NCBI RefSeq assembly: GCF_055900595.2
Contig: NZ_CM148325.1
Length of the DNA: 64,000 nucleotides
Strand: one strand, 5' to 3'
Shown here piece after piece: positions 58,101-61,982 of this stretch. Every line of letters starts with the position of its first letter. The stretch's first letter is position 1. A program made the position numbers.

Positions 58101-61100
58101 GACAAAAGAGCTGACAGGTAAAGCCATGTTTATGGCGCTCAGGAGCCAGCGCCCACCTGCCGGGCTAATCCACCACTCCGATCGAGGTTCACAGTACTGC
58201 GCATACGATTACCGGGTCATCCAGGAGCAGTTTGGTCTGAAAACATCAATGTCGCGTAAAGGTAACTGTTACGACAACGCTCCGATGGAAAGCTTCTGGG
58301 GAACGCTGAAAAATGAGAGCCTGAGCCACTATCGTTTTAATAGCCGGGATGAGGCCATCTCAGTAATACGGGAATACATTGAGATTTTCTACAATCGTCA
58401 GCGTCGTCACTCTCGTCTGGGGAATATCTCCCCGGCAGCCTTCAGGGAAAAATATCATCAGATGGCTGCTTAAAAAAAGAACAAATGGTAGTGTCCGCTA
58501 TTGCCAGTACACCTCAGGATGCCGTCCGTCTCTTCTGCCGCTGGCCGCAGTTGCCTGCGTTTATGCTTCATTAATCATCATCGGGTTCGGATGTCCTAAT
58601 CACGGTTAATTATGTTCGGCCCTTCATGCTGCCGGTTTTGCAGCGCTACTACGGCGTCGGTAGCACACTGGCAGAGCGGCAGATCTCCCGGGGTAATTCG
58701 CACGACTTTCCTGCTTATGCCTGTCGGCTGTACGTCACCGCGTTCCGTGTGAGTATTGGGCTTTGGTGATTTGTGCCGCCTTAGCCGCTTCCTGTTCGTC
58801 AGGCCAGCATTTTGCATCCGGCTTCCTTCAGATTTCACCTCGCGATGAACATCCTTGCCTTCCGCTAACATTTCCCCTCACCGGGTGTTTGGAGAACTTT
58901 CACCTCTTAGTCGTTCTTCAGCCACCACAGTTGAAGAACAGCGCCAGTCACGGCGCACACAAAAAACGCGTAGTGAATACACTACGCGTCAGACTTTTTA
59001 TTTTTGTTAATTATAATTAAATGAATTTCACGTTAATTTTCAGATAGCGTTCCGGAAATTGATCTAACTCTTTTACAGCCTCAGGAACTTCATCTATTGT
59101 CACGACTTTGCTCACGATATCAGCCGGATTAATATTCAGCGTTGATAACATTTGCAGGGCTTCTTCAAATTCACCGGCACTGGTACGGGAACCACGTAAA
59201 TCTAGTTCTTTAAAGGTAATTAGATTAGTTGGTAACGATGTTTCCTGCTTTGGCCAACCAGTATAGGCTATACGCCCTGCAAATGAGGCCAGATCCAGGG
59301 TACTTCTGATTGCGCTATTTGCACCAGAGGCTTCCACCACAACCTGAGCCATCCTCCCTTGTGTAATATCTTTCACTGCCTCAATAACATTAGCTTTTGC
59401 GGAGTTTACTACATAAGGTACGCCGAGCGATTTCGCGTATTGCAACCGTTCATCGACAATATCAACCAGAATGGGAGTTGCTTTATAGTTCAACGAACTC
59501 AGGGCCGCCATAAGTCCAATAGCGCCTGCACCAATAATGACGACATGTTCACCTGCTTTCAATTGTGCTCGATGTAATGCGTGTAGGGCAATAGTTAAGG
59601 GTTCAGCCAGTGGCGCCATCTCTGACGGTACATTGTCAGGAATTTTGTGAATTAAGTGAGCCGGATGCGAAACCACTTCTTGCATAGCGCCATCAATATG
59701 TACGCCGATGACTTTTAAGTTCTCGCAGCAATTAGTTCTACCTACAGAACATGGATAACAGTGACCGCAATAAACATAGGGATCTACAATAACCCGGTCG
59801 CCCTGTTTGATATTTTGTGGTACCCCCTCACCGGTTTCCAGAACAATCCCGGTGACTTCATGTCCAATAATTCTCGGATAAGTTACCAGTGGGTTAGTAC
59901 CACGAAATGCACCGATGTCAGAACCACAAATTCCCGCTGCATCCACTTTAATTAAAACTTCATTATCTTTTCTTACTGGATAATCGACCAGACGGGTAGC
60001 AATTTCACCAGGTTTATTGATGTACACAGCTTTGACTTTCATTGACTTTCAATCCTTTATTTTTAACAAAAATGAATACCAGCAGACTTGAAATGATTGC
60101 TATGGCACCTGCAAGATAGAATGCGTAATCATATTTACCACTGAACTGGACAATAAAACCGGTTACCAATGGACCAATAATGCCGGAAATATTTGCCAGA
60201 CCGTGCATCGCACCGCCTACGCTACCTACTTTATCTTTATGCACTACATCCTGAATAACAGCCCAATAAATAGGTCCAGTTAGATAAAGCAGGAATAAGG
60301 AAACAGACATCAGCGTAATCGCACTACCAATAGAGGTAACAGTTCCGGAAACAGCGACACAAACCGCGGCCCCCGCAAGGCAACTGCCGAGAATTAAACG
60401 GCGAGAAAGTAAGGCATTTCCCGTAATACGATAAATAAAGTCAGAGCAGACGCCACCTAACACCATGCCAATTGCCCCAATAAACCACGGGATAACAGTT
60501 GCAATACTAATTTCTTTAATATCAATGTGTAATGAATGATTCAAATAGCTTGGAAACCAAGTAAGAAAGAAAAATAGAATATAGTTATAGCTAAAAAATG
60601 CCAGCGTGGTCGCCCATACCATCGGCTGCTTCATGTAATAACCAAGCGAAGGTGTACCTTTACCATCTTCGGCTAGAATAATATCGTCATGGTTTTCGAA
60701 ATCGACACGTTCTTCCGCTGCCAGACGTTTACTTTTTGACGGTTTATCACTGACAAAGAAGTACCACAGTAATACCCAAACTAGGCCAAATATAAATATG
60801 ATCCCAAACGCCGGACGCCAGCCAAGTGATATTGCCAGCAAGCCAACGACCGGACCAGAAATAGCGCCACCAAGTGGTGAACCAGCACTAAAAATACCGA
60901 TAGCTGTTGCCGACTCTTTACGCGAGATCCAGTTATTAATAATTTTATTTCCTGCTGCACTAACCGGGCCCTCTGCCATACCAAATAAAACACGTACGGC
61001 AAGCATTGTCCATAATCCGGTGACCAGACCGGTCATACCACAAAAAACAGACCACAACAGTGCAGCAACCAAAAATACTGTTTTGGGTCCAACTTTGTCA

Positions 61101-61982
61101 CTGGCCCAACCGCCAATGAAGTTAAATAAAGCATAACCAACGAAAAATGCGCTGAAAATCATCCCCATTTCAGCAGCATTAAAGCCTAACTCTTTTTCGA
61201 TAAGTGGGGCCGTAATCGATAATGCAGAACGATCCATATAGTTCAGCATGTAAACTATAAACAGAAGAAAAACGATAATCCACCCCATGGTTTTTCTTTT
61301 CATGATATTTCCTCTTATTGTGGTCTAGCGGCCTGACCACAATATTTAATATTTATTTTTAGATCATCATAAAAAGAAGGGTTTTGTGATCAATATAACA
61401 AAAATGGGATAACCAGTGTTCAATAACAATTATAATCACTCTCTAGTTGTATGATTTTATTTACTCTATTTTGAGTGATTAATATGTAAGACAGTATGAC
61501 TTTCCGGGAGAGAGGCTCTGATCAACGTGGTAGCTTTAACGCGGGTTAGCACCAAGGCCAGTACCGCATAGGTTAGCTGGCGCTAGCCGATGTGGCTGAC
61601 AAATGGGAGCTTCGTCAGTTCAAAGAAACGCCGGAACAGCGCTTCGCGCTGGAGCAGGAACATCTGCAGCCGTTACCGGATACAGACTTCGATACCAGTT
61701 ACTTCGACATCCGCCATGTGTCCTGGGACCCGCTATAACGAAGTTGGAGGTAATCAGTACAGCGTTCCCGAAATGCTGTGTGGTCAGCCAGTCTCGATAC
61801 GAATATCGCTGAACGATGAGTTGCGGATCTACAGTAATGAGAAACTGGTGGCCTCACATCGCCTCTGCTCAGTGTCGTCTGGCTAGCAGATAGTACCGGA
61901 ACCTCACGCCCCGCTCTGGCAGCAGATCAGTCAGGTGGAACATCGACCACTGAGTGCCTATGAGGAGCTGTTGTGATGCATG

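Follow-up and report, generated by a model that had tools for sequence, protein, structure and literature searches.

A predicted L-gulonate utilization module of Escherichia coli and Salmonella, apparently split from its GntR-family regulator gene by a group II intron and insertion sequences in an E. coli genomic island

Among characterized systems for the use of sugar acids, two are close to the locus described here. The L-gulonate cluster of Haemophilus influenzae Rd KW20 encodes GulD (HI0053, EC 1.1.1.380), GulPQM, UxuB, UxuA and UxuR (Calhoun et al., eLife 2018, PMC5788505). GulD oxidizes L-gulonate at C5 to D-fructuronate with a kcat/KM of about 1e4 M-1 s-1; a GulD knockout does not grow on L-gulonate, and labelled D-fructuronate appears (PMC5788505). 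In E. coli K-12, the lgoT-lgoR-lgoD genes encode a major facilitator superfamily (MFS) transporter of the anion:cation symporter (ACS) family, a Zn-dependent aldonate 5-dehydrogenase and a dedicated regulator, which together feed a hexuronate (D-tagaturonate, finished by UxaB and UxaA) to the core Ashwell pathway. Here we describe a module of the same ordinary three-gene type, consisting of an importer, a dehydrogenase and their own predicted repressor, in a 64,000-nucleotide stretch of an E. coli chromosome (contig NZ_CM148325.1 of assembly GCF_055900595.2; hereafter the window). Its substrate is most likely L-gulonate, and its operon appears to have been separated from the repressor gene by a group II intron and then by insertion sequence (IS) elements.

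The MFS and dehydrogenase genes form a compact operon at 59017-61344, as the initial annotation had described it (Table 1). The dehydrogenase ATG falls 29 nt inside the MFS reading frame, and a hairpin of 10-11 pairs followed by a T-run lies 27 nt past the dehydrogenase stop codon (fold energy -19.2 kcal/mol, z = -3.6 versus shuffles). The upper end of this interval, 61344, takes in the ribosome-binding site (RBS) and a conserved palindrome at 61318-61342. The GntR-family gene points towards the dehydrogenase gene, so that the two are convergent. All three open reading frames (ORFs) are full length relative to their orthologues. Their GC contents (0.42, 0.44 and 0.38, compared with 0.47 for the whole window) agree with the low GC that the regulator gene had been said to share with the operon. 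The ratios of nonsynonymous to synonymous substitution rates (dN/dS) between the window variant and the other E. coli variant are 0.035 (MFS), 0.097 (dehydrogenase) and 0.227 (GntR), and all three genes are therefore under purifying selection. The island that carries them lies near argW; the left part of the window contains the core genes ypdA, evgAS, emrKY and dsdA, followed by csc sucrose genes and a CP4-like block. E. coli FY10 is 100% identical to window positions 58500-62000, its RefSeq annotation contains the same three genes, and the equivalent region is an island adjoining tRNA-Arg and yfdC.

Table 1. Coordinates in the window of the three cassette genes, their control regions and the DNA that surrounds or separates them
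Feature	Position	Strand	Basis
MFS transporter gene, 429 aa, anion:cation symporter/SLC17-type, predicted L-gulonate:H+ importer	60014..61303	-	ORF call
Zn-dependent medium-chain dehydrogenase gene, 341 aa, predicted NAD+-dependent L-gulonate 5-dehydrogenase	59017..60042	-	ORF call, homology
GntR-family regulator gene (FadR subfamily, FCD domain), 223 aa, predicted cognate regulator of the operon	46772..47443	+	family models, ORF, linkage
Conserved regulatory region upstream of the MFS gene	61304..61420	-	alignment, 11 loci
Native upstream region of the GntR gene, conserved ATGATATGATAA box at 46721-46732	46700..46771	+	alignment
Hairpin terminator, bidirectional in the intact cassette (common to the dehydrogenase and convergent GntR genes)	58965..58990	.	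detection and folding
13 nt of the original GntR-dehydrogenase spacer (CCTTTTCTGCGCT); cassette breakpoint at its 3' end	47444..47456	+	plasmid alignment
GGDEF-domain gene remnant, frameshifted, C-terminal third; precedes GntR in the plasmid form	46172..46671	+	plasmid alignment
Group II intron 5' fragment, GTGCG start directly after the terminator T-run; wedge splitting the cassette	58517..58960	-	Rfam match
Further fragments of the same intron (positions about 505-1440), opposite orientation, 16 kb away	41472..42114	+	similarity
IS4 terminal fragment, starting 26 nt after the breakpoint on the GntR side	47483..47693	+	similarity
IS3-family fragment interrupting the intron	57578..58473	+	similarity
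IS30, complete copy	56332..57584	+	similarity
IS30, truncated copy; inversion relative to FY10 has one endpoint at its inner end	40229..41171	-	similarity

The dehydrogenase belongs to the Zn-dependent medium-chain dehydrogenases/reductases. The residues that form the catalytic zinc ligands, the structural-zinc Cys4 loop, the GxGxxG Rossmann motif and the acidic residue for NAD+ (C39, H61, E62, E147, C92/C95/C98/C106, G171-G176 and D194) are present in the window protein and invariant across 15 homologues, and the domains PF08240 and PF00107 were found on near-identical cluster representatives. It aligns without gaps over 339 residues with the homologue P0055, to which it is 63% identical and 81% similar. 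P0055 was recognized as H. influenzae GulD by four primer-derived peptides (MKERIKAICL, SGRMAE, EEALDML and HPENYLKINAVF), all four of which occur only in P0055 among the homologues listed. Homologues with 62-67% identity are common throughout the Pasteurellaceae and lie in clusters of the form GntR-UxuA <> dehydrogenase-TRAP-SDR (tripartite ATP-independent periplasmic transporter; short-chain dehydrogenase/reductase), arranged as in the L-gulonate cluster of H. influenzae. The proposal of a sugar-acid cassette is upheld by this similarity to a characterized aldonate 5-dehydrogenase, together with the placement of the transporter in the ACS group. The more specific proposal of an L-galactonate-type pair did not survive, since the closest characterized enzyme is an L-gulonate 5-dehydrogenase and the identities to K-12 LgoD (36%) and LgoT (28%) are low; descent from the L-galactonate system was rejected for the same reason.

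Genes found beside orthologous dehydrogenases point to the fate of the product. A five-gene form of the cassette (MFS-dehydrogenase-UxuA-UxuB <GntR) is present in four Citrobacter species and one Salmonella island, and its UxuA and UxuB are 92% and 84% identical to the D-mannonate dehydratase UxuA and the oxidoreductase UxuB of K-12, respectively. The more distant cassette L100 contains UxuA and an SDR of the H. influenzae UxuB type. GulD-like dehydrogenases are associated with UxuA/UxuB in the Citrobacter, Salmonella island, L008 and L100 cassettes. Because these cassettes have recruited UxuA with UxuB or an SDR, the product of the dehydrogenase should be D-fructuronate. We infer that the substrate of the module is L-gulonate, with a probability of roughly 0.6. 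The MFS protein would import L-gulonate, and the dehydrogenase would oxidize it at C5 with NAD+ to D-fructuronate. The core fructuronate reductase (UxuB) and mannonate dehydratase (UxuA) would then carry this product to 2-keto-3-deoxygluconate (KDG) and the Entner-Doudoroff route. Two structural genes would suffice because the pathway depends on core UxuA and UxuB.

The predicted chemistry (L-gulonate to D-fructuronate to D-mannonate to KDG) is thus that of the H. influenzae cluster, which resembles the module in its first enzyme, in having an adjacent GntR/FCD regulator and, for the five-gene enterobacterial form, in the presence of UxuA and UxuB. It differs in that uptake there is by a TRAP system whereas an ACS-type MFS permease is encoded here, and in that uxuA and uxuB are absent from the E. 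coli cassette, either lost or never acquired. Enterobacterial UxuB belongs to the long-chain mannitol-dehydrogenase type and that of H. influenzae is an SDR; the Pasteurellaceae UxuR-type regulator is about 33% identical to the window GntR protein. The lgo system, although similar in its components, is a distant paralogue with a different gene order, and LgoR has no match to the window GntR protein at E <= 1e-5.

For the transporter, the best NCBIfam family is TIGR00893, whose profile it aligns with from end to end (positions 1-399 of 399), and DgoT is the best match among solved structures (E-value: 4e-39). From these matches the protein is predicted to be a relative of the TIGR00893 D-galactonate transporter subfamily within the ACS group, and we do not call it a member. 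Its orthologues in Salmonella and Citrobacter are 91-94% identical.

The GntR-family gene at 46772-47443 had been proposed as the displaced regulator of the operon, and comparison with other genomes supports this pairing. In plasmid pLR-28_1 (L094), the three genes are contiguous (GntR> <dehydrogenase <MFS): the GntR gene is at 7271-7942 (+), the dehydrogenase gene is at 8001-9026 (-), and the 58 bp between their stop codons contain the same terminator hairpin. The plasmid regulator is 92% identical to that of the window. A cassette copy 93-94% identical to the window, with convergent GntR and dehydrogenase genes 58 bp apart and a common terminator, was found in 50 other E. coli records (30 of them plasmids). 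When an artificial query spanning the GntR-dehydrogenase junction was searched in E. coli records, it was matched in one piece in 50 records, and among the ranking rows sampled all one-piece matches belonged to the 93% variant. In contrast, in the 160 records of the variant with at least 99% identity the cassette is split at the terminator T-run, and most records (about 95% of split-variant genomes) retain both halves. In a survey of 5426 complete E. coli genomes, with totals counted separately for the two parts, the MFS-dehydrogenase pair was found in 204, and the count for the GntR gene was 209. Agreement extends to the bands of identity, with 154 pairs and 160 GntR genes at 99% or above and 50 of each at 90-95%.

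Outside E. coli, dehydrogenase orthologues (81-88% identity) occur in Salmonella and Citrobacter, and in each of these loci with a contig long enough to extend beyond the dehydrogenase gene, a GntR gene adjoins that gene on the opposite strand. The loci in which adjacency was scored comprise the 50 E. coli records, S. bongori, S. enterica, four Citrobacter species and three unassigned metagenome contigs. The partner GntR/FCD proteins of Salmonella and Citrobacter are 223-224 aa in length and 70-77% identical to the window protein. S. bongori and S. enterica carry GntR> <dehydrogenase <MFS at one conserved chromosomal site, between a hydrogenase/CBAH-hydrolase block and a PhoPQ-related gene (pqaA), and the same trio is found in S. 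diarizonae and unassigned contig L009. These Salmonella genes are direct orthologues of the window genes (MFS 92-93%, dehydrogenase 82-83% and GntR 71-73% identity) with the same convergent layout, regulatory region and palindrome. They differ in occupying a fixed chromosomal site; the E. coli cassette is an accessory one, found in about 4% of complete genomes, where plasmids or an island carry it, and in the window it is split. The Salmonella trio probably corresponds to STM1541-STM1543. The link persists at 49-52% GntR identity, both in the convergent trio of L099 and in the co-oriented UxuA-MFS-dehydrogenase-SDR-GntR cluster of L100. The homologues of the regulator form a distinct orthologue group, after which identity falls to 42% or less. 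We looked for orthologous cassettes that never co-occur with this regulator and for consistent linkage of the regulator to other neighbours, and found neither. Because a GntR orthologue is adjacent in every informative locus, the window gene is the displaced partner of the MFS-dehydrogenase operon, and its assignment as regulator stands.

The relationship between the short and long forms is indicated by L009, in which the dehydrogenase-GntR spacer (3963-4239) retains a remnant of the UxuB C-terminus (aa 448-489, E-value: 2e-9). The three-gene form of this contig thus derives from the five-gene form by deletion, which shows that short forms can arise from long ones in this way. A tblastn search of the window with the Salmonella island proteins found no uxuA or uxuB remnants. 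In pLR-28_1 (L094 4127-12172), the intact trio lies with LysE, GGDEF and truncated EAL genes in a 7.3-kb unit with two flanking IS1B copies, which looks like a composite transposon. In E. coli records H36-H39 and H48-H50, IS1A cuts the MFS gene or an IS3-family element cuts the dehydrogenase gene, and the module is therefore undergoing inactivation in parts of the E. coli population.

The window regulator gives full-length matches to the LldR, UxuR, PdhR, GlcC and NanR models, and GntR and FCD domains (PF00392 and PF07729) were found on cluster members 97-100% identical to it, which places it in the FadR subfamily. Its scores fall well below the equivalog cutoffs for LldR (105.8 versus 311), UxuR (96.6 versus 442) and ExuR (78.4 versus 396), and it is 35% identical to K-12 UxuR. 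Its gene is still preceded by 600 bp of native sequence, in which homology with the plasmid form starts at 46171. Because this sequence and the ATGATATGATAA box have been kept, expression of the gene should continue, with its product acting in trans.

Upstream of the MFS gene, about 110 bp are conserved across 11 loci (from Escherichia, Salmonella and Citrobacter, with two unassigned contigs), and all loci diverge further upstream. This region contains a sigma-70-like sequence (TTGATC-16-TATGAT, 61393..61366) that overlaps a CRP-like site (TGTTA-N6-TCACA, 61385-61400); an alternative -10 sequence found in other genera (TAAAAT) gives a different spacing. Directly before the RBS is a perfect inverted repeat, TTGTGGTC-N9-GACCACAA (61318-61342), which is unchanged in 8 of the 11 loci while its flanks vary. 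L009 and L042 have one base change each, and L008 carries an 8-nt duplication, AGACCACC, within the palindrome (about 8700-8740). Distant cassettes have related palindromes of the type ATTG(T)GG...CC(A)CAAT at the same position, and the sole other match to the repeat in the window is at chance level. We regard this palindrome as the best candidate for the GntR operator. Lying between the promoter and the RBS, it is probably the site through which GntR represses the operon, and repression would be released by the sugar acid or its product. A fragmented pseudogene with a Mu-transposase domain (about 61590-61980) lies directly upstream of the conserved region.

The position at which the cassette was broken can be read from its alignment with the plasmid form. 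Homology is limited to 46171-47456 and 58961-61485, and both breaks fall at the same point of the 58-bp spacer, between the hairpin T-run and the AGCGCAG leading up to the GntR stop codon. The terminator is therefore bidirectional and common to the two convergent genes; the operon does have a terminator, as proposed, but this strong hairpin is not private to it. The sequence that directly follows the T-run is the 5' fragment of a group II intron. It matches group-II-D1D4-3 (RF02001, Rfam) with 89 bits and is 83-91% identical to a full-length intron of another E. coli (L095 3509-5350), which has D1-D4, domain V and maturase/reverse-transcriptase ORFs and lies directly after the grpO terminator. 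With a GTGCG 5' end, a D1-D4 match and insertion directly 3' of an intrinsic terminator, the intron behaves as one of the terminator-targeting, class C-like (IIC) kind. It differs from described IIC introns in that it is a fragment, broken by IS3 and IS30, with neither a reverse-transcriptase ORF nor a 3' end in place. The 5' fragment was matched in 3155 of the 5426 E. coli genomes. The similar placement of its L095 relative behind the grpO terminator suggests that a terminator-homing intron family is widespread in E. coli.

Insertion of this intron is the most economical account of a break placed precisely where the T-run stops. A terminator-targeting group II intron would have inserted directly after the common terminator, after which IS3, IS30 (with an autotransporter gene), IS4, IS66 and IS10 would have accumulated and inversions followed. 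Later insertions had been held responsible for displacing the regulator gene; IS elements do lie between the halves, but the first wedge would be the intron and not an IS. An IS3-family element cuts the intron at about intron position 500. The 11.5 kb between the halves contain IS4 and ISEc31 fragments, isrC, an autotransporter gene cut by IS10, toxin and transposase fragments, IS30 and the IS3 fragment. The regulator, now encoded 11.5 kb from its operon but with its own upstream region, should still be able to act in trans. Within this debris, the Hfq-binding small RNA isrC (RF01387) is matched at full length with 150 bits (47980-48102, +). The autotransporter gene (50238-55073) is interrupted at 52278-53608 by an IS10-type element (RNA-OUT at 52324-52393) and is intact in FY10.

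Relative to FY10 (L001 64-8518), segment 40229-48682 is inverted. The initial annotation had postulated an IS30 inversion, and a simple IS30 x IS30 event was rejected because only one end of the segment lies in an IS30 copy, inside the truncated element; the other end, at 48674-48682, is beside an IS3 fragment. In FY10 a nested IS3::IS30-autotransporter-IS30 block interrupts the intron, whose pieces are colinear, and the GntR gene is co-oriented with the dehydrogenase gene. In the window, the cassette halves keep the ancestral convergent orientation and the intron pieces do not match in orientation. At least two rearrangements are needed. A co-oriented regulator gene separated from the operon only by mobile DNA, as had been suggested for the earlier state, does therefore exist in FY10, but this arrangement appears to be itself rearranged, the original being convergent with 58 bp between the genes. 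The window also lacks about 3 kb that FY10 has, comprising the remainder of IS30, a fragment of IS3 and a second intron whose ltrA is intact.

Several observations weigh against parts of this reading. The 63% identity to GulD is just above the level of about 60% that the authors of the GulD study treat as safe for function transfer (PMC5788505). The score of the MFS protein against TIGR00893 (329.1 bits) is below the family cutoff of 395. We know of no characterized MFS importer of L-gulonate. The window itself contains no uxuA or uxuB, so the pathway would rely on core genes outside it. In the open-access literature we found nothing relevant on the Salmonella orthologues or on L-gulonate use in enterobacteria; a study by Cooper (FEBS Letters, 1980) reportedly dealt with the breakdown of L-gulonate by E. 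coli K-12 and S. typhimurium LT2. The palindrome is so nearly invariant that it offers no covariation, its 9-nt spacing between 8-nt arms is unlike the classical FadR-type TGGT-N3-ACCA, and as a hairpin in the 5' untranslated region of the mRNA (-14.9 kcal/mol, z = -4.2) it could act at the RNA level. No intron 3' end was found beside the GntR half, where Rfam gave no match at E <= 1 and the 3' terminus of the full-length relative showed no similarity, and the 26 nt between the breakpoint and the IS4 terminal repeat (47457-47482) are neither an intron 3' end nor a recognized IS end.

The same architecture and regulator could also serve another substrate, such as L-galactonate (giving D-tagaturonate), L-idonate (giving 5-keto-D-gluconate) or an uncharacterized aldonate or polyol, which we consider possible but unlikely. 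The closest paralogous systems in E. coli are lgoT-lgoR-lgoD and rspAB, and RspB provides both the best NCBIfam match (NF007489, RspB-type) and the best solved structure (4ilk) for the dehydrogenase; the NF007489 score, however, is 242.9 bits against a cutoff of 376. K-12 LgoD is reported to accept L-gulonate as well as L-galactonate (Kuivanen and Richard 2014, as cited in PMC12928451), a dual activity that indicates loose specificity in this fold, and the identity to GulD is just 63%. The identity to LgoD is nevertheless low, the match to IdnD is weak (about 100 bits), and orthologous cassettes take up UxuA with UxuB or the H. influenzae UxuB-type SDR but never UxaA/UxaB or an IdnO-type enzyme, which points to fructuronate.

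An improbable alternative is that the cassette in the island is a decaying remnant with no current function. Its surroundings are an IS graveyard in which the neighbouring GGDEF gene, intron, IS3, Mu transposase and autotransporter gene are all fragmented, and in other strains the MFS and dehydrogenase genes have themselves been interrupted by IS1 and an IS3 element, respectively. On the other hand, the promoter region, palindrome, RBS and terminator are as intact as the three full-length ORFs, dN/dS is 0.04-0.23, and both halves are retained in nearly all split-variant genomes. Similarly improbable is the proposition that the GntR protein is not the regulator of the operon, its adjacency reflecting co-transfer only and control being exerted by core UxuR/ExuR or by CRP alone. 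In its favour, the promoter has a CRP-like site, and no copy of the palindrome was found upstream of the GntR gene. Against this, the linkage is kept where the genus, the order and orientation of the genes and the gene content have changed, and at GntR identities as low as 49%, within an orthologue group clearly set apart from other homologues. The palindrome is also not known to match the UxuR/ExuR consensus.

The preferred reading, an L-gulonate module under its own GntR-family repressor, leaves current concepts unchanged; the gain is at the level of annotation and concerns a known kind of system. At about even odds, the trio would be the first MFS-based L-gulonate system, with a new L-gulonate:H+ permease and a new FadR-type repressor having its own 8-N9-8 operator. 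The locus also offers a clean case in which a terminator-targeting group II intron would have parted a regulator gene from its operon and seeded a pile-up of IS elements. The three genes are present in about 4% of complete E. coli genomes and are widespread in Salmonella and Citrobacter. If L-gulonate is indeed the substrate, a two-gene operon would suffice for its use by plugging into the core uxuAB pathway, and genes now annotated as "MFS transporter", "zinc-binding alcohol dehydrogenase family protein" and "FadR/GntR family transcriptional regulator" would gain a candidate substrate. A function would then be available for a conserved, unstudied Salmonella locus and for a trait that is accessory in E. 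coli, where plasmids and islands carry it; the trait may be connected with L-gulonate from the glucuronate/ascorbate pathway of the animal host.

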